From contig CM119381.1 in assembly GCA_051294905.1 (NCBI GenBank), forward strand, positions 11,160,001 to 11,224,000: 64,000 nt of DNA. Reading direction: 5' to 3'. Shown here in pieces: positions 2,780-63,096 of this stretch. Origin of the DNA: Botryllus schlosseri. Its lineage: Eukaryota. Position 1 is the first letter of the stretch, and every line of letters begins with the position of its first letter. Made by a program: the position numbers and the translations under genes. Below the pieces are notes generated by a model. The model made no database searches, had not been told where the DNA came from, and saw only the letters and a list, made by a program, of their open reading frames with translations.

Positions 2780-3279
2780 TGTAGCCGCCGTACGGCCCTA
2801 AGGTGTCGCTGTGGCTCCTTCACACTCCCGCCGAGCAAGGAAGTGGACTCAGTGTCATTGTTACCTCACAGCGGTAACTAGGTCTGACGTATCGTGATGC
2901 AATTCACTGTTTAGTGCACGTGCGTTAGTGGTAGGATCGTTTTGGCATTAGTTGAGTTAATAGAATAGGAATAGTTAGGTTTATTGCATTGCTAGAATAG
3001 GGCTAGGTTAATTCATTCATCGTCTCACTGTTTTGATGTCTTGTTACAGTCAAAGTAAATCTATAAATAAAATAAACTAAAAAACCCGGAAGACACATTG
3101 TCAAGTAAGATGCTTTGTATTTGATTAGCTTAGTACGTACTTGCCAATGCTGATTGTATTTCATTTTTAATAGAAAACACGCACCAACAAAGCGAGTCTT
3201 TTTCTCTGTGCCGAAAGGGATCATTAGCAGCCAGATATTTCAATCCACCCTGTGGCGCGATCTGCGGGTTGCGGCTACA
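2780..3279 (+). repeat. 5' LTR (500 bp)
   Basis: TG...CA ends. No difference from the 3' LTR was seen by eye, and the ORF track gives identical 73-aa translations at an offset of 4191. Confidence 0.95.
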
Positions 3280-3412
3280 TTAGTTTTTTGACAATCTTCA
3301 AATCTGTTCGTTGGAACACCTTCATCAACAAAGAAAACCAAAATGGCTGAAGAAGCTAATTCAAACTTGCTGCTAGTGGAGACTGAAGAGCAAAATACGG
3401 TACCGGTACGGA

Positions 3413-6400
3413 ATGATAAATCAAACAATGCCCAGGCGGGCACAAGCAGTGGTTCCTGTGGCCTCGAACAAATCCAAAGAATGTCGAACGCTGACAAACA
3501 AAAAGTCAAAGTCAGCTGTGTCGACGATCCACAAATCAAAGTTACTGAGGTCACATTCTATGACTCTGAGGAGCCTGCCGACCAAAGGTAGGCCGTCCTT
3601 GTCATCGAGCCACTGCTCAAACAAGCCAAAAACCCTACCGGTATTTGCCAAATCACTGAAATCACGATCGTCAGTCTCGAGCACTGCAACAGGATCAAGC
3701 TATATGAGTAACTCTCAAATTCTCAGTTTACAACACTCAAGGGATGTTCACCGTGATAAAAAGGCTGAAATGGACAAAAAGCACGTCGAGCATCGTTTTC
3801 AACAAGAAAATGACGCCTTCGAAGATCAGGTAAGATCTGAAGAAGAACAGATCTTACAGGAATTGCAACTTCAAGAGGAAGAGGAAAAGAGGCGTCAAAT
3901 GGAGTTACGACAAAAACTCGAAATGCATAAAAAGAAAGCTCTCGAAGGCAGAAAGTCCTTGAATCAAAGACTGAAGAACAACCTACAAGAAATTGACGAT
4001 AGAACTGAGCGAGAAAATCTGCAATCAAAAGCTCAATTCGAGGAAATTATGATTGAACGGGGACTATATAACGATTCCAAAAGCATACAAAATGTGCATC
4101 AACCAACATCAAGCTCGAACTCCGTCACAGTATCCGAGAACGCCAACGCTCCACCGGCAGCAGTGGTGAAATCCGAGCCGCAACAACTTCGAGAATTGTC
4201 GGTGACTCCAAATCTCTCAGAAACAGGTACGTCGGCTATTTTCTCACCTCTTGGAAGTTCATATTGTTCCTTACCAATTCGCAGTGTGGGTGCTATGAAT
4301 GCAAGTAGTGTGAGTGCAACGAACGCCAGCAGTACGAGTATAAGTAGCCCTAGTACTGTGATATCTGGCACTAGCGCCTATCTTCAACCTTCTAACTTGG
4401 TTTGGTCTAATAGTCCCATCATGTCAAATCTAACAAACATGGTAGCTACAAGTTTTCCGCTCACTGCTTTGAATCATAAGCCTATTTTCGATGCGAGAAG
4501 GCCACCTGACCCAGAAGTAGTGCCTAGTTCGATTTTGAATTCGATAAAAAATGACTCTCGTTCGCCCGCCAACGTTGTGTATTCTGTAGCTCCGCCAGTA
4601 ATTCAACAAAACCTTTTGCCACCTTTCGAACCCCCAATATTTTCTGGTAACCCCAGTGATTTCAATAGTTTCATGGATATTTTCGAAACGACGATTGGAA
4701 ACAAAATTACTGAACCAAAACAAAAACTGGTCTACTTGATGCGTTACACCAAAGGACCAGCAAATACTCTCGTCAAGAGCTGCTTACACCTTGATGCAAA
4801 CGACTGCTACCGAGAAGCACTGAACCTGCTTCAAGAGATGTATGGCCAAAAGTTCAGAATCGGACCTTCTTGTTTAAACTTAATATCCTCTGGTCCTCAA
4901 GTAAAGTTGCATGATCAGGATGGCTTGGCGATTCTTTCCGCCGATCTTATATCCTGTGTAAATACTCTCAAAGGTATCAACTACCAATCCGTCTCGCTGG
5001 AGACAATTGATAAAATCGCACTCAGAATGCCCGCACAATGGAGGTCAGGCTGGCTTAGCGTCATGGACCATATCCTCCATGAACTGCAGTGCGACGTGAA
5101 AATGAGCGATCTGTCTGCTTACCTGCGTAAAAAGGTACGTGAAGCGTCGAACGTTCCGTCCCAAGAACAAAGTACAAAGAATAATCCAGTGGTTGTAAGG
5201 CAAACAAAATCAAACTTTGCAACTTCTGTTTGTGCCGGTAATAAAGGCACCAAGGATGACTCTGGGTCATCGTGCATAAAATGCAAGAAGAAACACTTTC
5301 TCAATCAGTGTCAGCAGTTCCGTGATATGGACGTTGCTGACAGAAGAGATTTCGTGAAAAATAATAAGCTATGCTTCTCATGCTTGCAACCCGGACACTG
5401 GTCTGACAAATGTACCAGAGAAAAACCATGCAAGTATCAACATTGTAATGGAAAACATACTACACTCCTGCATGTGAATCCAGTGTCCACAAACGATGAG
5501 AACAAACCCGTCGTCCAAAATTCTGCGGCTTCAACTGTCGCCCAAGAAAACGCTCCAAAGGCTCAAGGACCTGTGAAATTCAATGCATTCGCCAAATTAC
5601 CTGAAGAAAATGTGTTACTCAACGTGGCACCTGTCCGCGTCAGAATTCGAGGAACAAACTGCTATATTGCTACACACGCTTTCTTTGACAACGGAAGTCA
5701 TCTTTCCTTCATTAGTGAAAATCTTGCAAATGAACTTTGCCTCCAAGGCGGTCAAACAGAATTTGATCTTCGCACCCTGGCAGGATTATCCGGTTACAAA
5801 GGTAACATATTCGATAATCTTGAGTTATCCGACTTCTATGGCACAGAATATGCTCTGCTCGCACCATTAGTATCAACTGACAGTATTGGTGTCGAGGACG
5901 TTGACATTCCAAGACAAGAAGACGTCAACCAATTTCCGGAATTCCAAGACGTGTGTATTCCAAAACTAGCATCCGAAGTTGGATTATTAATTGGAAAAGA
6001 AAACAGAAGGCTTCACAAGCCCTTGGAGGTTATTCATGGTCCAAATGACTATTATGCAACCAGAACGTTTGCAGGCTGGATGATAAACTGCCCGGCCAAA
6101 TTGGCAGGCGGAACAGAAAAGGTATTTTTCTCAAAGCCTGCAACAAATTCGCCGAAATCCCTATATCAGCTGTGTCGGTATTTTGTCGACTCGAAGAAGA
6201 ACGAGAAACAAGAACTGTCACAAAATGATAAACTGTCTCTTGAATCTGCAGAAAAATCAATGGAACTGTATAATGACATCTCACTTAATGATGGTCTGTT
6301 ACAGGGGCCAGATTTGACAAACGACCTGGTTGAAGTCTCATCCAGTGTCCACAAACATATCGTCGGCATCCAAGGAGATGTTCGAGCTGTGATTCACCAA

Positions 6401-6721
6401 GCGAAGGCTTGTAAAGATGACAAGGATCTGTTTCGCCTCCTATGGAAGAAAGATTTCCCTTACTCTGAAGTGAACTCAAACTCTATGGTCAACAATAACA
6501 AATACTTTCCAAAAGAACCGATATTTCCAATTGGCCTCTCCTTTCTCCGGAGGATCTGTATAACTGTAACGTGGTATCTTGCAACTTTCTGCAAAGTCTT
6601 CAAGACATTCGTTTTCAACCTTGTCAACCAAATCAAAGTTGGGTCCAACCTGTATCGATGGTGGAATGTACCGTCCAAGTTGAATCCCTGCAGACATCGC
6701 CTTGAGAGGCCTTTCTGCTGA
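3413..6721 (+). CDS. BEL/Pao Gag-protease polyprotein ending in degenerate RT/RNase H remnants (1102 aa; true start uncertain)
   Basis: Coiled coil. DUF1759-like PIFSGNPSDFNSF...KLVYL. Three Cys/His knuckles (CIKCKKKHFLNQC, CFSCLQPGHWSDKC, CKYQHCNGKHTTLLH). Aspartic protease FFDNGS. RT fragment SLNDGLLQGPDLTN. No YVDD and no integrase core. Confidence 0.9.
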   Translation: MINQTMPRRAQAVVPVASNKSKECRTLTNKKSKSAVSTIHKSKLLRSHSMTLRSLPTKGRPSLSSSHCSNKPKTLPVFAKSLKSRSSVSSTATGSSYMSNSQILSLQHSRDVHRDKKAEMDKKHVEHRFQQENDAFEDQVRSEEEQILQELQLQEEEEKRRQMELRQKLEMHKKKALEGRKSLNQRLKNNLQEIDDRTERENLQSKAQFEEIMIERGLYNDSKSIQNVHQPTSSSNSVTVSENANAPPAAVVKSEPQQLRELSVTPNLSETGTSAIFSPLGSSYCSLPIRSVGAMNASSVSATNASSTSISSPSTVISGTSAYLQPSNLVWSNSPIMSNLTNMVATSFPLTALNHKPIFDARRPPDPEVVPSSILNSIKNDSRSPANVVYSVAPPVIQQNLLPPFEPPIFSGNPSDFNSFMDIFETTIGNKITEPKQKLVYLMRYTKGPANTLVKSCLHLDANDCYREALNLLQEMYGQKFRIGPSCLNLISSGPQVKLHDQDGLAILSADLISCVNTLKGINYQSVSLETIDKIALRMPAQWRSGWLSVMDHILHELQCDVKMSDLSAYLRKKVREASNVPSQEQSTKNNPVVVRQTKSNFATSVCAGNKGTKDDSGSSCIKCKKKHFLNQCQQFRDMDVADRRDFVKNNKLCFSCLQPGHWSDKCTREKPCKYQHCNGKHTTLLHVNPVSTNDENKPVVQNSAASTVAQENAPKAQGPVKFNAFAKLPEENVLLNVAPVRVRIRGTNCYIATHAFFDNGSHLSFISENLANELCLQGGQTEFDLRTLAGLSGYKGNIFDNLELSDFYGTEYALLAPLVSTDSIGVEDVDIPRQEDVNQFPEFQDVCIPKLASEVGLLIGKENRRLHKPLEVIHGPNDYYATRTFAGWMINCPAKLAGGTEKVFFSKPATNSPKSLYQLCRYFVDSKKNEKQELSQNDKLSLESAEKSMELYNDISLNDGLLQGPDLTNDLVEVSSSVHKHIVGIQGDVRAVIHQAKACKDDKDLFRLLWKKDFPYSEVNSNSMVNNNKYFPKEPIFPIGLSFLRRICITVTWYLATFCKVFKTFVFNLVNQIKVGSNLYRWWNVPSKLNPCRHRLERPFC

Positions 6722-6970
6722 TACACTTCTAAATTTGTCTTTTTGTCAAACAATCCACAGTTGCTCCTAGACCAGCCACTGTGGACTAAATTTTCAAAGT
6801 ACACCTGTTGTATTTTTAAGCTTGCCCTCTTAAATAAGAGAGAATAACTTAGTTTTCATTTCGTTAAATAATTACCATTTCGTTTGGTAGCACCTGCTGA
6901 CTGCGTGAGTGTGTGTACGTGTGGAAATCTCCAAATTCGGAACAAATTTTGAATTTCCAAGGGGCCAGGA

Positions 6971-7470
6971 TGTAGCCGCCGTACGGCCCTAAGGTGTCGC
7001 TGTGGCTCCTTCACACTCCCGCCGAGCAAGGAAGTGGACTCAGTGTCATTGTTACCTCACAGCGGTAACTAGGTCTGACGTATCGTGATGCAATTCACTG
7101 TTTAGTGCACGTGCGTTAGTGGTAGGATCGTTTTGGCATTAGTTGAGTTAATAGAATAGGAATAGTTAGGTTTATTGCATTGCTAGAATAGGGCTAGGTT
7201 AATTCATTCATCGTCTCACTGTTTTGATGTCTTGTTACAGTCAAAGTAAATCTATAAATAAAATAAACTAAAAAACCCGGAAGACACATTGTCAAGTAAG
7301 ATGCTTTGTATTTGATTAGCTTAGTACGTACTTGCCAATGCTGATTGTATTTCATTTTTAATAGAAAACACGCACCAACAAAGCGAGTCTTTTTCTCTGT
7401 GCCGAAAGGGATCATTAGCAGCCAGATATTTCAATCCACCCTGTGGCGCGATCTGCGGGTTGCGGCTACA
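6971..7470 (+). repeat. 3' LTR (500 bp)
   Basis: Direct copy of 2780-3279, preceded by the PPT and followed by the TSD. Confidence 0.95.
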
Positions 7471-9159
7471 CATACTTCTAACAGTTTAGCAGAGGTCGTT
7501 ATTTTCGGAACAGTAGGGTACATCTTGGTGACTAACGCAAGATGATGAATGACAATAATACGAATATAGGTGCAATATTATAAATACTAATCAGTTTCTG
7601 TGATATAGAAGTGATACAAACATATTCCAAAACTACTTTATACTTTACAAAATCTACTTTACAATAAATCGTTAAAGCGTTTTGGTGATAGTCTTTCTAA
7701 TCGGAGTTATATTTCACGGTGCAGTGTGCTATTTTTTATGCCAGGTAACTGACATTAATTACTGCACATATTCGTTTTTCGATTAAGGCGTTGCGAACGT
7801 GTTAACCCGAAAATGCAGCAATGCACCCTAAAACCCTCCTCGCCATCTCGTCCGTGTAACCACACACCATGGATAACGGTGTCGACAAACACCATGAATA
7901 CCGCAAACAAAAACAACCCTAAAACCCTTTTATATACCCAGAAACAGTTGTCGCAACTCGCAACTAAGCGTCTCAATGCGACGTCAGAACCCTGGCGCAA
8001 GAGATAATCACTGTGATTATATTGCGCGCTTTCTCGGACGGTAGCCTACTTGAAATCATCAGTTTCGTAAAAAATTATTGTCTGGAAGATAATGTGCCTC
8101 CACTGAATGTCGAAAATAATGCCTCATAACCAGGGCTTTGGAGCCGAAGCCCCGCAGCCGTGCATTTTTGCTGGAGCCGAAAATTCAGCCGAAGCTGGAG
8201 CTAGTTATTTGAGGGGTAGCTCCGGCTCCGACGTATTTCATAAGATGCTATTATATATGCAACCTGCTAAGTTCACATAATTCAACAGCAGGCCTTCGCG
8301 AAATTAAGAATCTTTTCCTCTTTGGCGCTACCTTTTCCGGCTAACCATTGTTTCTGGGGATTCAACAGCAGAGCAGTCATATGTTCAACGTTCAATCTTC
8401 ATATGAGCGCCGAACCTCGGTATGCTAGATATGCCTGTGAATATTGTGGGTGTTCAGCATACCCGCAATTTCATCATCAACACAACCTTGATGGCCAATT
8501 GTGCGGTTCGAAAATAATGATCACTATGTATTACGCGAAATGGGAGAGAAAATAAAAACGTGATTTCGTTGCACATGGCGATACGACGAGAACGAGCCGG
8601 GAAATTCCATCTCATCGTCGCTATGAATCAATTGAGCAAATACTCGTTCTTTCGTGATAGTTCTTCAATCGGGCCGCGGAATTGGACAGGTGTTATTAAG
8701 TATGCAATTATGCATGCGAATTGGAATTCATTACTACGCATGATCGTCATTCACTCCAGTAAGGATTCTCGAGCGTGGATAGGGGATGGCAGATGAGTAG
8801 CCCAAAACGCCGTCACACTCAGCGAACAATTGTCGCGGTGCGAGCTACTCAATGCGGTGTCAGAACCCGTGGTATTTTATGTTGGAGGCAAATTACTGAT
8901 TTGATACGCGATTTCCAATTTGTAATCATCTGTTTCGTAAATTCATTCATGATGTCTGCGTGATACTGTAGTATTTCGGGATTAACGCGCACTGTGACTT
9001 GTAAATGTGCATAGTTTAATTCGTTACGGGCACGGCACAGTGATTAATTAAGTTGCAATAATAATGAAACATCATATTCTTCGTGCAATTCGTTATGGGC
9101 ATGGCGCAATGTGCATGGCACAATGTTTAATTCGATTCGTTTCAACGGGAGAATATTAT

Positions 9160-9423: not shown

Positions 9424-9431
9424 GTAACGAC

Positions 9432-9960
9432 TAGGGCTGGGCAAAATCGAGTACCCGAGTGATTCGATTCTGAATCACGTAAAATGCTTCGAGTCGAGTC
9501 GAGTAATCGAGTATCACTCATTATGACGTCATAGCAGAATATTATTTGTCGAAGTTCAAATCTGTACCTTTTAAGCGACCACAAAGAATATAATGCCTGT
9601 TATCCATCATAATAAGTATACTTTGTTATTTTTTTCGACCATACCGATTTCATTGCACTTGGTGACAATATTGTGGGATGATCATGACTTCGGCAATGTG
9701 CTATTTCCAGTAACGTTCGTAGCTTCGTACTTCATGTTTCATATGCTACGATACGGCCAATCAAGGTTTCAAGGCTTCAACAGTGAAATTAACAGAAACT
9801 CGTTGATCGTTGATTAACTCCTCGTTGATAAATCAACTTTCAGTGGTGAGGAGCGTATAATTTCGGTACTCGAAAAAATCGTATTTTACTACTCGACTCG
9901 AATCAATAAAATTAATACTCGATTCAGATTCGAGTACTCGAATCATTGTGCCCAGCCCTA
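9432..9960. mobile_element. hAT MITE (TAGGGCTGGG TIR), copy 1
   Basis: TIRs tagggctgggc / gcccagcccta, flanked by gtaacgac (9424-9431) and gtaacgag (9961-9968). Confidence 0.9.
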
Positions 9961-9968
9961 GTAACGAG

Positions 9969-10484
9969 TAGGGCTGGGACAATGATTCGAGTACTCGAAT
10001 CTGAATCGAGTATTAATTTTTGTGATTCGAGTCGAGTAGTAAAAGACGAATTTTTCGAGTACTGAAATTATACGCTCCTCGCCACTTAAAGTTAGTTTAT
10101 CAAAGAGAGTTATAGTTTCGATACTAATTTTCACTGTTGAAGCTTTGAAACCCTGATTGGCCGTATCGTAGCATACGAAACATATAGTACAAAGCTACGA
10201 ACGTTACTAGAAATAGCACATTTCCGAAGTCATGATCATCCCACAACATTGTCACGTAGTGCAATGAAATCGGTTTGGTCGAAAAAATAACAAAGTATGT
10301 TTAATGTGTTGGATAACAGGCATTATATTCTTTGTGGTGGCATAAAAGGTACATATTTGAACGTTGACATATTACATTCTGTTGTGACGTCATAATGAGT
10401 GATACTCGATTACTGGACTTGGCTCGAAGCATAATACGTGATTCAGAACCGAATCACTCAGGTACTCGATTTTGCCCAGCCCTA
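9969..10484. mobile_element. hAT MITE (TAGGGCTGGG TIR), copy 2, inverted relative to copy 1
   Basis: Diverged reverse-complement homolog of 9432-9960 over its whole length. TSD gtaacgag at 9961-9968 and 10485-10492. Confidence 0.9.
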
Positions 10485-10547
10485 GTAACGAGTGCACCAA
10501 TATCGAACGTCAAACCATTGGCCATTTGGTACAAATCGAATTTCTAT

Positions 10548-14710: not shown

Positions 14711-17700
14711 TCACGCATTGGTAGCTCCGGGTACAGGCAGTTGTAAGGTCGATTTCTCCAACGTTTGACTGTCCGACGAACTCTCGCTTGAGCGATTAGG
14801 GAGAGTTTTTCGAGTCTTATCTGATTCAAATGAAGGCTCTTTAGTGACACCATGTACGGACTCCAAACCAACTGTAGATGGACCTGTTTTGTAGGAAGAC
14901 CCAGACGGGAAGAAGTTTTCCACGCTTGTACCTCTTTTCATCAAGGCCGTTTTGATATCCGGCATCAGTCTGGTGGAGCCTAATTCTCCCAGGACTTCTA
15001 CAATAGCTCCGCTAGGAAGACGTAGGAAATGTCTGTACAATTCCCTCAAGCCGTCAAGATGAAGAGTATGAATCGACAGGTGAGTGGTGATTTCTTGCCT
15101 CGTAGTCGCGTCTTCATCCTCCGTCTCCTCTCCCCAAATATAATCGTAAACAGTCACTTTTCGTCTCTCCCCGTCTGCACCTCTCCATTGCTCGGCCTTT
15201 TTCACAATGTAAGCAAGCTCTTGAATGCTGATTTCAAGATCAAAAGGTACGAAAAACACTTCCTCTTCGCCATGCAACCGATGGAATATGTCCAACATCC
15301 TGCCGTTGTTATGCAATTTCAGGAAGTAAAGATAAAGAATCACTATCGATACGAACATCAGCAGGGCGTACAGATAGATTGTCAACGGTACGCCAATCAC
15401 TCCGGAACCTTGCGTTTGGTAAAAGTGCCAGTACAACTTATAAGCATCTCCGATTGGTTGAGTAGCGCTAAATTGGTATCTCCCCAAAGCGGAATCGACG
15501 ATCAGAATTGCTATAGGGTCGAACGCAGTCCACAAGGCATACATCATTATAAATTTCGAGAACAGCGGTGGAAATGACCCGATAGTCATCTGACTGACCC
15601 AGGACACCAACACGAATAGGACCAAGATCAGAATATTCGCGACTGGCCCAAGCACGACCACGCCTATCACCTCACCCGTGCGGAGCAAATCAGCTTGGTA
15701 GTTGAGATCCACTGTATACGGATAGAAGACGAACGCGTTGACGGGGATGGATATTGCTTGCAGAAACAGCCATTGTCCGCAGTAATGGACGTACAAACGA
15801 ACGAACCATATCAACGCCACCAGGAGCATGAGCACCCAAAATTCCCTTGTTCGCCACTGCGAAAATCCCATTTCCGACAAAAACATTCTTCTTACATAGT
15901 CTGCACGTTCGTGGCCCGTAGACTGCACCTGACCTTTGGTAGAGAATGGTTTCTGCACAGCAAAGCTGTGCCTTTCCAGGTCCTCCAAATAAGTAAGCTT
16001 TGGTTTCGGGGTCTTTGCATCCAGCACAGCTGTGTGGGGAATCAATTTCGCTGCTCGCTTAGCATTGTAATCTTCCACCGGGTTTTCGAAATGAACTTTG
16101 TAATACATTCCCTTCTCGTTTTTGACTGTCATGAATTGACCATCATCAATTGTACCAGATTTGCTGGCGATGTCACTGTCTTCGTCGGATGACGAGTCGT
16201 AACCCAGTTTGCTTGCTTTGCCGGAAGATGAGAGACGGCTTTTCCCGCGATACCTTATGCTCGACCGTTTACCAGTTTCGTCCGAGTATGAAGCTGATTT
16301 CAATTCACTTGACGATGCGTTGCTTTTCTCCAAAGTGCCCGTCATGTTCAAACTCAAGTTGGAAGCAGAACGTATTGACTCAGCGCCCGATACTGATTTT
16401 GCATCAGAGCGTTCCGGAGCTTCTTCTCCGTCTATTGCATCTTCTGCGTCTAACAATCTGTCCGGATAGCTGAGCAATCCGGAGCTAAACTGCAATTCAA
16501 CTTCATACTCTTTCTGCCCGGAAAGGTACCTGGGAAGTCTCACTATTTGAAAGTAGACGTTCGCCAACCAATGGTCAAGATCTGTAGCCACCAATTCTTC
16601 GATCAGTCCGTGTCTGTCGATTCTGGTGTCGATGTGCCCGCGTAACATGGGAGACTTGTAATGTCCTTGTACGATGTCGAATTGGCCATCGCATATCGGG
16701 AAGCAAGACCAGGCTACAACTCTGTCGGTGGGTGTTACAGCGCCTCGAAGCAGGAATAGTTCGAATATTAAAACCATACCTGGCCTTACTTCGTCTTTAG
16801 AGGGCACTACAGTGAAGACACTTTGGTCCAAATGGATCTGAGATGATGAAAACTTTCCATCGTGGTACACCGGTAACGTTGATCCTCCCCATTGCTGCCC
16901 AGTCATACGAGACCATCTCATTACATGACCTCCCAATCTGTCATATAGGGACACCATGATGGCGTATCGACCGCCGGGGATTTTGTCCCTCAATCCGCGA
17001 ACGCACTTCAGTTTGACTTGGATAGGCTGAGGCGTTTTTGACCACTCTAGCCTCCACCGTCTTCCTTTGCTACCTCCATATTGATCATCTGCAAAAGTGA
17101 GATCGCCGTATAACGACTTTATTTCACCTTTACGCTCATCGAGGGCTTGTGCGAGTTGACTTTCGGATTTCCTGAAGGCGATTTGTAATCTCTCCTGGTA
17201 CAGACGTTCTCTTTGACCAAGCAAGGCTTCCCTTCTCATTATTTCTTGTTTTTGACGCTGAAGCTCCACCAATAAACGCTCCTTGGCCGTTTCCTCTTTT
17301 TCTGCAATCTCCATCTTTCTTTGTTGCTGCTCTTCAGCAAGATACTTGGTGTAGGCGACATGCTCTTCTCGTAGTCTGAGCTCCTCTTGCTGAATCTCCT
17401 CGATTGAAACCGGAGCTAGCATAACCACGTCATTTTTGATTTCGTCCTCAAACTCATCAAGATATTGCGGTACTGCGCTAGTCTCAATTTCGGTGCGCAG
17501 AGAGGTCAGCTTCGAATCATACTTATCGTGAACATCTTTATTTTCCGGAGCCTCCGAACTTTCGATTTCTTCGAATTGTTTGAGAAATTGGTCTAAGTTA
17601 TGGTTCTGCTCTGGGGCATCAAACCAATCTTCTTTGTCGATATCAGATTCGTTCTCCATGTCAGTATCGACAGGCAGCTCTGGCGATTGAGGCTGTAGTG

Positions 17701-17830
17701 GTCGCAGTGATGTTTGTGATACAGAAGGCGTTCCCAAGGTATTGGTTTCGTTTTCAATGGTTACACTCCCACTACCAGGCGGTGAAGTAGCGGGAATAGG
17801 GTTCTCTATTCCCTCCCCAATCGCATCCAT
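14711..17830 (-). CDS. OFCC1: OFCC1/ojoplano-like multi-pass membrane protein, single coding exon (1039 aa)
   Basis: Uninterrupted ORF with ccaaaATG context. Acidic N-terminus and coiled coil. Conserved block WSKTPQPIQVKLKCVRGLRDKIPGGRY...LYDRLGGHVMRWS...RPGMVLIFELFLLRG. Four hydrophobic segments in the C-terminal half. The family call is from recall, not a search. Confidence 0.7.
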   Translation of the reverse strand: MDAIGEGIENPIPATSPPGSGSVTIENETNTLGTPSVSQTSLRPLQPQSPELPVDTDMENESDIDKEDWFDAPEQNHNLDQFLKQFEEIESSEAPENKDVHDKYDSKLTSLRTEIETSAVPQYLDEFEDEIKNDVVMLAPVSIEEIQQEELRLREEHVAYTKYLAEEQQQRKMEIAEKEETAKERLLVELQRQKQEIMRREALLGQRERLYQERLQIAFRKSESQLAQALDERKGEIKSLYGDLTFADDQYGGSKGRRWRLEWSKTPQPIQVKLKCVRGLRDKIPGGRYAIMVSLYDRLGGHVMRWSRMTGQQWGGSTLPVYHDGKFSSSQIHLDQSVFTVVPSKDEVRPGMVLIFELFLLRGAVTPTDRVVAWSCFPICDGQFDIVQGHYKSPMLRGHIDTRIDRHGLIEELVATDLDHWLANVYFQIVRLPRYLSGQKEYEVELQFSSGLLSYPDRLLDAEDAIDGEEAPERSDAKSVSGAESIRSASNLSLNMTGTLEKSNASSSELKSASYSDETGKRSSIRYRGKSRLSSSGKASKLGYDSSSDEDSDIASKSGTIDDGQFMTVKNEKGMYYKVHFENPVEDYNAKRAAKLIPHTAVLDAKTPKPKLTYLEDLERHSFAVQKPFSTKGQVQSTGHERADYVRRMFLSEMGFSQWRTREFWVLMLLVALIWFVRLYVHYCGQWLFLQAISIPVNAFVFYPYTVDLNYQADLLRTGEVIGVVVLGPVANILILVLFVLVSWVSQMTIGSFPPLFSKFIMMYALWTAFDPIAILIVDSALGRYQFSATQPIGDAYKLYWHFYQTQGSGVIGVPLTIYLYALLMFVSIVILYLYFLKLHNNGRMLDIFHRLHGEEEVFFVPFDLEISIQELAYIVKKAEQWRGADGERRKVTVYDYIWGEETEDEDATTRQEITTHLSIHTLHLDGLRELYRHFLRLPSGAIVEVLGELGSTRLMPDIKTALMKRGTSVENFFPSGSSYKTGPSTVGLESVHGVTKEPSFESDKTRKTLPNRSSESSSDSQTLEKSTLQLPVPGATNA

Positions 17831-20640
17831 TTTGGATGTGATTGTAAAGTTAGGTATTACCTACAGAGGCTATAGTTGCCTGAAATAAGAAGGGACTGTC
17901 GTTAAAAGTTTAAATCCTAAGCATACAGGATGTGAGAATCTTGAAATCGTCAAGATTCTGTCAAAGCCAAATTTCACTGTCCCGTATATTTGAACGACAT
18001 TATCTCACTTCTGCATCGAAAGCGCATAAGTTCAACACTCGTGCGTCTTTGCCGTCGCATTACCGCGTGATCAGCAGGAAATACAAGAAAACGCACAACC
18101 ACACGAATTACGACTGTGGAACAGTAATTCGTTCGTCGCAATCCTATAATCCCCAAGCATATGCCCACATTCAAGATGAAGCACATAATCTCCAGAAAGG
18201 ATACTAGTCTGCACGGTGCACACGACGGAGCAGGGAGCACGATCTGACGTAGGCTACCTATATTGCCAACCAATAGGTAGCCTACGGATAGGTCTTAAAA
18301 AAAGAATGACAAGCATCACCACGCTTGAATACAAACGCTGTTGAATGATGCTTGTGGAGTTGTCGACAGTGTCGCAATTGGTCAAATTAATTTTTGCTGT
18401 TGCTCGCCACGTTAACTCAATTTAAACGTTCTTGTTAGGCAGCGAGTAGGACGAACATGACCCGGCTAAGTAAGAATACAAGGACATTGAATGAAAAATA
18501 GCCAGGAAAAAGCTCATCAGCTTGGGCAAATTACCGAAAGTCCAAAATTGTTTCACCTAACAGTGGACGACACGAAGTAGGGCGATTTCTACACCATGTT
18601 CCGCCGCGTTATAATCAGAGCCTGGATGGAGGCAGAAATAGAAGTCAGATGTCATTTTTCGGGTTCGGGCACGACGTTGGCAAATATTTCCGGCGTTAAA
18701 ATGAGTGATCATTGAACTAATCAACCGTATGAATTCGTACTAGTGCTCGGTAAAATAAGGCAACAAAAATCAAGTGTCGGGCGCCGAGGTGATGTATGTT
18801 CGCGGCCTGACTCCACAACTGACAGGATAGTTGAAATGGTCGGGAAAAACTAGACTCAGCCCTAATTTCCAACTGACCGATATTCCACATCGATGTATAG
18901 AAAGCTGGCGAGCGAGGATATGGGGCTAATAGGCAATATATCGCGTCTGCCTGTAATCGATAAACCAACAGCGCGACGCCACGTTAAAACTATAAAACAT
19001 GATTTTCATATAAGGCAAGAAGATTGTAAAGAATACTGTAAATTAGCGTAACTACTGCTGTATGAGCTGGATGGATGTCTTGACCTCCGGCGAAGCCCTG
19101 AGACTGGGTCAGCCCTGTGGAGTCGCTTGCGATTAAGAATCACACAGTACTATTAAAAATGACTAAGATGAACTGACACCAACTTGGTACTCTGGCCTAC
19201 CTAAATAGGTCTGCGATCTACTACTGCTCTATGTTAGCCATTAGCATTTGGCGTTGTCGTAAATCCTCAATTATTTTAAGCAAATACCCTAGGATTGATG
19301 TATGAATGGTAATATACTCACGTCGTAACAAATCCGCACTGCTCGCTATTACCAATCTAGCTTCGAGATGTGCATTGTGCAATTGTGTTGTACATTTAGC
19401 GTACATTATTCATATTGAAATGTACATTTACGATTTTGGCGATTCATTACGAATATTAATAAAGTGCAGGTGTTCCATGCTCGAAGTTAAATATCGGAGT
19501 TCTAATACATTGGAATTGAAAGTATTCAACTGGATAAATTATTCCAGCATCAAGAATTCGTTTCGCGAAAAAATCTTCCCGGATACCTAATTATGAGGTT
19601 TGAATAACGGAATATGCGTTACTCCATTTCATACGTCATTTCAGTTGTTGCCTCTTCTGCTAATTTAAGGACGTCTTTACCTTGCATCCAAGGCGAAATA
19701 CTATCAGTTGCTGTCGATTAAATACTACCTTATTACAACACTATCGCAATTTGTAGAACAAAACTATTATTATTATTAGACTTCATAAAGTAACTTTGAT
19801 GCCTTTTTATTTCTTGAATGTTCCGATGTTGTGAGGTGATAAAAGAGATATAAATGAACCAACTCTTCTCTCTCGGCTTAGCACGTCATAATCAGCCTGT
19901 CTTTTATTTTCGTCCGCTCAAGACACACTTTGATTGCACTTATCGTACTTTACTATCTCGACCGTCCAATCTCTCAATACTATTCTGAAATGCGACAAGC
20001 ACACAATTGCATGGAAACTGTGAGCGATACTATATACTCAGTGAGGCTCTACCCAGTCGAATCAACTGTAGACGCTATACTTCAGGCTCAAGAATGGAAT
20101 CCGGCACTTCAGAAATGTATAGCTTGAGCACAATATTGACACAGACAATGACGACAAAGCACGTCAACAAAGCGACGCGATTCGATAGAACTCATAAAAT
20201 ATCCTTCGTCTTTTGACGGTTTCCTTGGAGATAATCGTCAACACCAATAAACCAAGCGATATTGTCGGATTCTGTAAACTAGGGCCAATTACATTGAATA
20301 GCTTTGCTATTGCCCAACGCTATTTTGCCCGCAACTAATAATAATTGACCTGACTTGAGGTTGCGTTAACGAATCTACCATTCAACAAAAGGCGGGCTGT
20401 GGAGCCAACAATGATACGTATAATTGGTCGACCATACAATGTATAATACCTCGTAACACGATGACGGCTACTATCCTGGCACCTGCCTATTTATTTACAA
20501 AGAATACATACCCACGAATGGTTTGTTATAGAATAGTATATTGTTCTTTCACCGAATGATAATGGCTTGTATATTTATATCAACATGTAAGGAGGCTTTC
20601 AAAATCATGTCCAGTTTCAAGGCGGCGATGGTCAGAAACA

Positions 20641-63096
<42,456 letters not shown>

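Follow-up and report, generated by a model that had tools for sequence, protein, structure and literature searches.

Introduction

Plant genomes contain long terminal repeat (LTR) elements that carry gag alone, the TR-GAG elements, and the silkworm element Pao, as first described, was reportedly short as well, lacking RNase H and integrase and keeping the reverse transcriptase (RT), which is lost in the short form presented here. That short form is a BEL/Pao-type element of Botryllus schlosseri, located at positions 2780-7470 of a 64,000-nt stretch of DNA (assembly GCA_051294905.1, contig CM119381.1, 11,160,001-11,224,000, forward strand; hereafter the window, from whose first base all coordinates are counted). 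This copy is very probably a recent member of a family that combines a selected Gag-protease with drifting scraps of pol and that is likely mobilised with the RNA, RT and integrase of a full-length relative.

Several systems with a comparable division of labor have been described. In wheat, the Ty3/gypsy elements RLG_Sabrina_SA/RLG_WHAM with RLG_Wilma, and RLG_Quinta with RLG_Cereba, have been discussed as 'semi-autonomous' (PMC9744471, PMC11302176). In the bovine endogenous retrovirus (ERV) ERVK[2-1-LTR], the defective D type outnumbers the competent C type, and four-gamete analysis points to recombination within and between the types (PMC10924933). The mouse intracisternal A particle (IAP) variant 1-Delta-1 is non-autonomous, internally deleted and the most active, and its fused-frame product aids retrotransposition in cis (PMC6466679). 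Tf1/Tf2 and Tj1 prime their own reverse transcription, since their primer site is complementary to a stretch of their own LTR and not to the end of a transfer RNA (tRNA) (PMC4600332, PMC3601003). These accounts, and the comparisons drawn below, rest on excerpts of the cited papers. Neither a semi-autonomous family nor self-priming was found for BEL/Pao in the literature searched, which included few subscription journals and no supplements; for neither is absence from print thereby proven. Nothing relevant was met in excerpts of PMC3286476, PMC3442997, PMC6238403 and PMC9341512.

Results

The window copy measures 4,691 bp, in agreement with a preliminary description of this DNA, made from its letters alone, that had estimated about 4.7 kb. 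Its LTRs (2780-3279 and 6971-7470, plus strand) begin with TG, end with CA and match at 500 of 500 bases, and the target-site duplication CATAC stands at 2775-2779 and 7471-7475; the identical repeats and perfect duplication on which that description had built are thus real, and the LTR divergence that would have spoken against it is absent. The TG...CA repeats, the 5-bp duplication, the polypurine tract (6959-6970, plus strand, with no difference from that of the full-length relative) and a DUF1759-type Gag with three Cys/His knuckles identify the element as BEL/Pao. A 1114-codon open frame (3377-6721, plus strand, first ATG at 3413) runs from Gag through protease into remnants of pol and contains, without interruption, the Gag capsid region (4640-4999; Pfam DUF1759, E 2.8e-8, over the cut-off), three zinc-knuckle motifs (5273-5473; identified by reading the sequence, with a weak Pfam zf-CCHC match, E 0.059) and the protease active-site motif FDNGS (5684-5698), which is the same in the full-length relative and whose Asp is aligned in 13 of 13 proteins compared. 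Gag itself had been called intact, which does not hold for this copy. An 11-nt deletion near 3495-3502, a lesion seen in none of the 11 other copies aligned over gag, shifts the frame that begins at the native start codon (3343), which therefore runs for only 82 codons to a stop at 3589-3591. The window copy is a damaged member of its family, with the native start codon severed from Gag.

Downstream of the protease, the short form lacks 291, 171, 657 and about 1,530 nt relative to the full-length relative and retains pieces of 187, 30, about 280 and 65 nt. The RT remnant (6268-6454, plus strand; 62 codons, 80% identity to the relative) follows the 291-nt deletion. The 171-nt deletion, in which the YVDD motif falls, is followed by a 10-codon remnant from directly after that motif (6455-6484), and the 657-nt deletion by the RNase H remnant (6485-6766). 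These three deletions are all in frame, being multiples of three. The integrase tail (6784-6848; 62% identity) lies behind the deletion of about 1.5 kb and beyond the open frame, which closes at 6721 because of an extra base at 6685, near which a frameshift had been noted. The order of motifs reported earlier was also borne out, with RT at 6281-6445, RNase H at 6602-6688 and the tail at 6784-6848, as was the absence of YVDD and of a DDE core: 0% of the integrase core of the relative is covered. The 10-codon remnant, and the LTR intron and primer site treated below, did not figure in that account. Since the remnants match the full-length relative at 61% and 50% amino-acid identity (E 7e-23 and 7e-18), they are not chance resemblances, and among 14 full-length elements this relative is the nearest to the RT remnant (61%, the next at 55%). 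In RNase H, 12 of 12 short copies have another residue in place of an Asp that six full-length families conserve without exception. With no YxDD RT, no such RNase H and no integrase catalytic core, the short form lacks the equipment of an autonomous element. The pol deletions were also considered as splicing products, an idea rejected because none of the four begins with GT and ends with AG. The RNase H remnant is hydrophobic in all short copies (6530-6610 in the window), at a level borderline for a membrane helix.

The full-length relative, which we call the helper, lies at G000:C10:14649972-14657416. It is 7,446 bp long, has LTRs that are 100% identical and carries a single 2092-codon frame with the domains DUF1759, RVT_1, Peptidase_A17, Integrase_H2C2, rve and DUF5641, that is, the BEL/Pao order of Gag, protease, RT, RNase H and integrase in which the remnants of the short form also stand. 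A full-length partner with matching LTR ends had been proposed as a check on the preliminary description; the helper is such a partner. It has the LTR ends and polypurine tract of the short copies and a primer site with one base changed, outside the pairing stretch. A genome search with helper pol (40 of 40 candidates scored) returned, above 91% identity, the helper and two 3' fragments only. The helper adjoins an interrupted short copy (G000:C10:14621000-14658000; L026-L029, L050), and a block made up of the helper's 3' part and a short-copy 5' LTR is present twice on C10, which reflects either a tandem duplication in this region or a misassembly.

The short form itself is a family. A search of the same genome, in which 39 of 89 candidates were scored, produced 48 matches, and family counts are therefore lower bounds. 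At least 13 loci carry the short interior, aligned over the remnant. The deletion junctions are common to 13 of 13 aligned copies wherever covered; the first is spanned by 12, the copy at L033 being 5'-truncated. The copies with the same junctions that the preliminary description had asked for thus exist, and neither a solitary copy nor deletions private to this locus, its two remaining grounds for refutation, were found. Distinct perfect 5-bp target duplications flank 11 loci, a count that excludes L047, which consists of two tandem units, one of them aligned. Paired LTRs are 99.0-100% identical in the nine copies where the pair was compared, and gag-protease differs by about 6% between copies. 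The family is therefore multi-copy, of common structure and recently inserted, as expected of a semi-autonomous element. Among readable copies, the frame from the native start is open over 1143-1187 codons in 6 of 11 and broken in the other five, by a separate lesion each. Among the contigs listed from four other public runs (with 609 further pieces beyond the list), those of X9, X11 and X13 bridge the junctions, those of X5 do not do so by the required margin, and full-type pol is present in X9 and X13. One X5 contig covers the left flank of the window copy (2609-2780) and ends there, in repetitive sequence. Around the short copy at L024 lies an array of tandem repeats, whose period is about 80 or 159 nt.

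Gag-protease and pol remnant evolve differently, as a comparison of nonsynonymous (dN) and synonymous (dS) substitution, also proposed earlier, demonstrates. In gag-protease, dS and dN are 0.139 and 0.037 among short copies and 0.135 and 0.035 against the helper, a ratio of about 0.27 that indicates purifying selection, and an allele-level test counts 240 synonymous changes where 141 are expected. The family, though not the native start of the window copy, thus satisfies what semi-autonomy requires of Gag-protease. Among gag-protease alleles absent from the helper, shared alleles comprise 99 synonymous and 73 nonsynonymous changes and private ones 81 and 107 (P 0.008); the corresponding shared alleles in the remnant number 11 and 28 (P 0.001 against gag-protease). 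The corrected dN/dS of the remnant is 0.84-0.86 among copies and 0.78-1.02 against the helper, values consistent with neutrality. Its 48 fixed amino-acid differences from the helper fall to the short lineage (30), to the helper (5) or are ambiguous (13), and of 27 residues that six full-length families share without variation, 10 have been lost. In 12 copies, however, the remnant contains no stop where 4.3 are expected (P 0.012), or one against 5.1 when the truncated L033 is included (P 0.036), and the probability of no stop along the stem of the short lineage, with all changes placed there, is about 0.01. Because the amino acids drift neutrally and stops are nevertheless missing, we infer that the open frame of the remnant is selected and its amino-acid content is not.

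The short copies have also exchanged sequence with the helper. Per 250-nt window, the distance between helper and short copies ranges from 0 to 17% in gag-protease, with the nearest copy shifting between windows, and is at least 19.8% everywhere in the remnant. Fixed differences number 21 of 2,978 sites in gag-protease and 1 of 503 in the LTR, compared to 31 of 184 in the RT piece and 46 of 249 in the RNase H piece. Neighboring informative sites are incompatible at a rate of 0.21, as opposed to 0.58 when shuffled (300 shuffles, lowest 0.54; 10 sequences). LTRs and remnants are likewise mosaic among copies, with 0.53 of LTR site pairs incompatible beyond 200 nt and 0.19 within 50 nt. Since gag-protease and LTR are mosaic with the helper and the remnant never comes closer than 19.8%, recombination followed the collapse of pol. 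A short lineage that trades those two regions, gag-protease and LTR, with its helper is no closed clone. That the LTRs are mosaic between copies yet paired within each copy suggests that the exchange most likely happened at reverse transcription.

In a sample of about 3-4% of two single-cell RNA runs, 358 and 480 reads matched the element, largely in sense and largely over the LTR and 5' gag. As most are 90-99% alike to it, they stem from the family rather than from the window copy. Expression, which had been named earlier as a check, is thus seen as sense transcription of the family. A contig of X6, a run that is RNA by our guess, spans 6221-6755. The LTR contains a splice acceptor (3041-3049, plus strand) to which the host spliced leader is joined, at 3050, in 21 reads from two runs; the leader matches 'Chordata 1' as given in an excerpt of the published description (PMC3795323). 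The leader motif occurs 254 times in the genome, dispersed, and at two of the three loci read it runs on into a splice donor (L093-L095). Further downstream, a 69-nt GT-AG intron (3105-3173) is spliced out in seven reads of X24 and one of X23, X6 contigs terminate at both of its edges, and it is retained in 25 of 25 matched LTR copies.

This intron bears on priming. The primer-binding site (3283-3295, plus strand) lacks a TGG start, and by that measure no tRNA-type primer site is seen in the element; no tRNA genes were found in the window. The site is complementary at 13 of 13 bases to the splice joint 3104/3174, compared to eight bases in unspliced RNA, so the predicted self-primer would consist of the last eight bases of one exon (3097-3104) and the first five of the next (3174-3178). 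Of the 11 family members in which the primer site can be read, 10, the helper included, pair at all 13 bases after splicing. In 32 BEL/Pao elements, which are not independent families, the bases following the 5' LTR were paired with the LTR of the element concerned; 29 scored at least 8 (median 11), as opposed to 87 of 248 cross-family control pairs (median 7.5). Of 21 elements tested for the effect of an intron, 15 match at 9 or more bases unspliced, four gain 3-5 bases from a predicted intron, and two, L060 and L073, whose LTR ends are uncertain, have no good match with or without one. In L049, L064 and L070, which belong to other full-length families, removal of a predicted LTR GT-AG intron alone completes the primer match. 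Own-LTR complementarity that covaries across families is a hallmark of Tf1-type priming and is present here; a primer at the extreme 5' end of the RNA is another and is not, as spliced reads reach at least 40 bases upstream of the donor. A transcription start near 3097 behind a TATA box was our initial guess and was dropped after read mapping.

The genome holds other BEL/Pao families without a complete pol, at loci that were chosen from match lists by frame length and allow no frequency to be derived. Family B (Gag-protease identity 41%) lacks RT and RNase H in all mapped copies (L037-L046, L051, L052) and occurs as Gag-protease-integrase (four copies), with partial integrase loss (five copies) and in shorter forms. 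Its LTR pairs are 97-100% identical, for instance at G000:C8:26687383-26692799, and its integrase is under selection (dN/dS 0.22-0.30). Scoring of 85 of 289 candidates yielded no helper for family B; the best match outside the family has 56% identity. Further pol-less families are D (four copies), F (one copy) and the Gag-only E (four frames, three LTR pairs mapped). The neutral remnant is not a general rule, as it fails in family D (0.3-0.4) and the single F copy is intermediate (0.6). Additional pol-less BEL/Pao loci were noted (L081-L084 and L080; L085 and L071; L089-L092 and L076; L086-L088), and among them are Gag-only elements of 3.0 kb whose LTRs are identical, as well as 2.8-3.0-kb elements distantly related to family B. 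The long frame of young short copies mostly closes about 100-375 nt ahead of the 3' LTR.

Elsewhere in the window are a 1-kb MITE-like (miniature inverted-repeat transposable element) fold-back element with arms about 90% complementary (9430-10486), a 1049-codon open frame without a Pfam match (14711-17860, minus strand) and an RVT_1 reverse-transcriptase fragment, probably of another retroelement (21849-22763, plus strand). From 25674 to 63100, minus-strand exons with VWA domains form blocks that recur at a spacing of 22-24 kb, and a tandem duplication of 4,108 nt lies inside this region, at about 41.6-50.3 kb.

Discussion

Botryllus schlosseri harbors a Gag-protease family of BEL/Pao elements that has been active recently and whose gag and LTR sequences form a recombining pool with those of a full-length partner. 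The preliminary description had proposed a stable, trans-mobilised lineage whose deletions predate its last transposition. The shared junctions, the partner and the selection on Gag-protease uphold the core of that proposal; the window copy, with its own Gag start broken, and a lineage that is not a closed clone require its revision. RT and integrase would be borrowed from the full-length relative.

The wheat elements resemble this family in having an intact Gag(-protease) frame without RT or integrase and a full-length partner with common LTR ends, primer site and polypurine tract, and their sequence exchange has been attributed to template switching, as we propose here. They differ in being plant Ty3/gypsy elements whose Gag is highly diverged from that of the partner, whereas in the BEL/Pao family it is interchangeable with the helper's. 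In addition, an in-frame, neutrally drifting pol remnant, present here, does not appear in the excerpted wheat descriptions. The bovine ERVK similarly recombines in shared flanks and retains linkage near the type-specific segment (PMC10924933). However, the bovine D type is retroviral, has no intact frame and carries in its middle an inserted piece of an old retroelement, while the middle of the BEL/Pao short form is its own decayed pol and its Gag-protease is coding. As in IAP 1-Delta-1, deletion has preserved one open frame, though in the BEL/Pao family there are four deletions, Gag and protease are whole, and the remnant is 20-38% diverged from the helper. Like Tf1/Tf2 and Tj1, the family has a primer site directly after the 5' LTR that pairs with its own LTR. 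Those elements are Ty3/gypsy chromoviruses with a contiguous primer at the RNA 5' end, in contrast to the BEL/Pao match, which needs splicing, and to BEL/Pao RNA, which unlike that of Tf1/Tj1 gains a host spliced leader upstream.

Several explanations compete with, or qualify, this account. There is a reasonable, somewhat less than even chance that the three in-frame deletions are relics of a stage at which the lineage still supplied integrase and have no bearing on present selection, a history compatible with trans-mobilisation by the helper. Family B displays just such a stage, with Gag-protease-integrase in one frame and the integrase under selection. A relic stage leaves unexplained, however, why stops are missing among present polymorphisms, which are younger than the loss of integrase.

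It is unlikely that the short RNAs are pure passengers that give no protein and owe their signal of gag-protease selection to recombination with full-length elements. Exchange with the helper is extensive and the frame is broken in nearly half of the readable copies. Moreover, the assembly represents the full-length copies of one animal and contains a single intact helper, and 'helper-absent' alleles may therefore derive from full-length copies of other individuals. Against this, the remnant cannot be refreshed from the helper and still lacks stops; frameshifting gag-protease indels are private to single copies in 4 of 4 cases, shared indels are multiples of three, and stop alleles occur as private alleles only. 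Short copies also outnumber the intact helper by at least 13 to 1.

We regard as distinctly improbable the idea that the remnant has acquired a function at the end of the polyprotein, for example by anchoring it in a membrane or by inhibiting the helper. Its RNase H portion reaches a best 19-residue hydropathy of 1.24-1.69, compared to 0.05 in the helper, and the difference gave P 0.036 in two of three copies tested; the window copy gave P 0.23, in a test that was uncorrected and post hoc, and a corrected dN/dS of 0.99 among copies marks the amino-acid changes in this portion as neutral. The mosaic is very unlikely to stem from gene conversion or ectopic recombination, in place of co-packaging, among copies already inserted. 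The copies are sufficiently alike for ectopic exchange (92-98%), and one short copy is found less than 30 kb from the helper on C10, but LTRs that are mosaic between copies and 99-100% identical within them, each pair with its own target duplication, place the exchange before or during reverse transcription. A one-off deletion at the window locus or an assembly artefact, for which nothing was found, is hardly credible: three other runs and at least 13 loci have the junctions in common, and next to identical LTRs stands a remnant that differs from the helper by 20-38%.

Mobilisation by the helper, which we continue to favor, has its own difficulties. No protein, particle or new insertion was observed, the evidence being RNA and DNA. 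Five of the 11 readable copies, including the window copy, are broken in frame despite young LTRs, and the assembly offers only one intact helper. Over the remnant, RNA reads reach a depth of 1.1 at most, LTR and gag reads are not assignable to short or full-length copies, and spliced reads are not assignable to the 5' LTR. The stop tests were post hoc and made on related copies, and the stem test puts all differences on the short branch, where 30 of 35 polarised amino-acid changes did arise. Finally, the RT remnant of family D has a dN/dS of 0.3-0.4 against its relative, which does not repeat the neutral pattern.

Following transcription, short and full-length RNAs might be packaged together in particles, and template switching at reverse transcription could then swap blocks of gag-protease and LTR. 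The remnant would be too diverged for crossover and would stay specific to the short form. If a short RNA must be translated to near its 3' LTR in order to propagate, the remnant would be held in frame. Reverse transcription might be primed in the manner of Tf1 by the 5' end of the element's own spliced RNA. The strong-stop DNA would in that case cover just the part of the LTR behind the primer, and the intron could be regained from the unspliced copy in the 3' LTR. More generally, we tentatively suggest, as a nearly even call, that BEL/Pao helper-parasite communities share one recombining Gag-protease/LTR pool, that in the present family host splicing builds the primer and that the parasite's scraps stay in frame only for the sake of translation.

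The family extends to BEL/Pao the helper-parasite lifestyle of the wheat elements and mammalian ERVs. Its mosaic is evidence for template switching, and for the packaging of two RNAs, in BEL/Pao particles, and trees of gag or LTR will not separate autonomous from non-autonomous lineages. Two features are likely to surprise specialists: a remnant that is open but neutral, and a read-supported splice junction that completes a primer match. As a segment that the helper cannot refresh, the remnant serves as an internal control that separates selection for an open frame from selection for protein sequence, and it thereby bears on why non-autonomous elements remain translated. If the proposed scheme is true, partial members would differ in what they supply, be it Gag only, Gag-protease or Gag-protease-integrase. 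Excision of the 69-nt LTR intron would gate the replication of helper and parasite both, and a primer completed by splicing would couple the onset of reverse transcription to RNA processing by the host.

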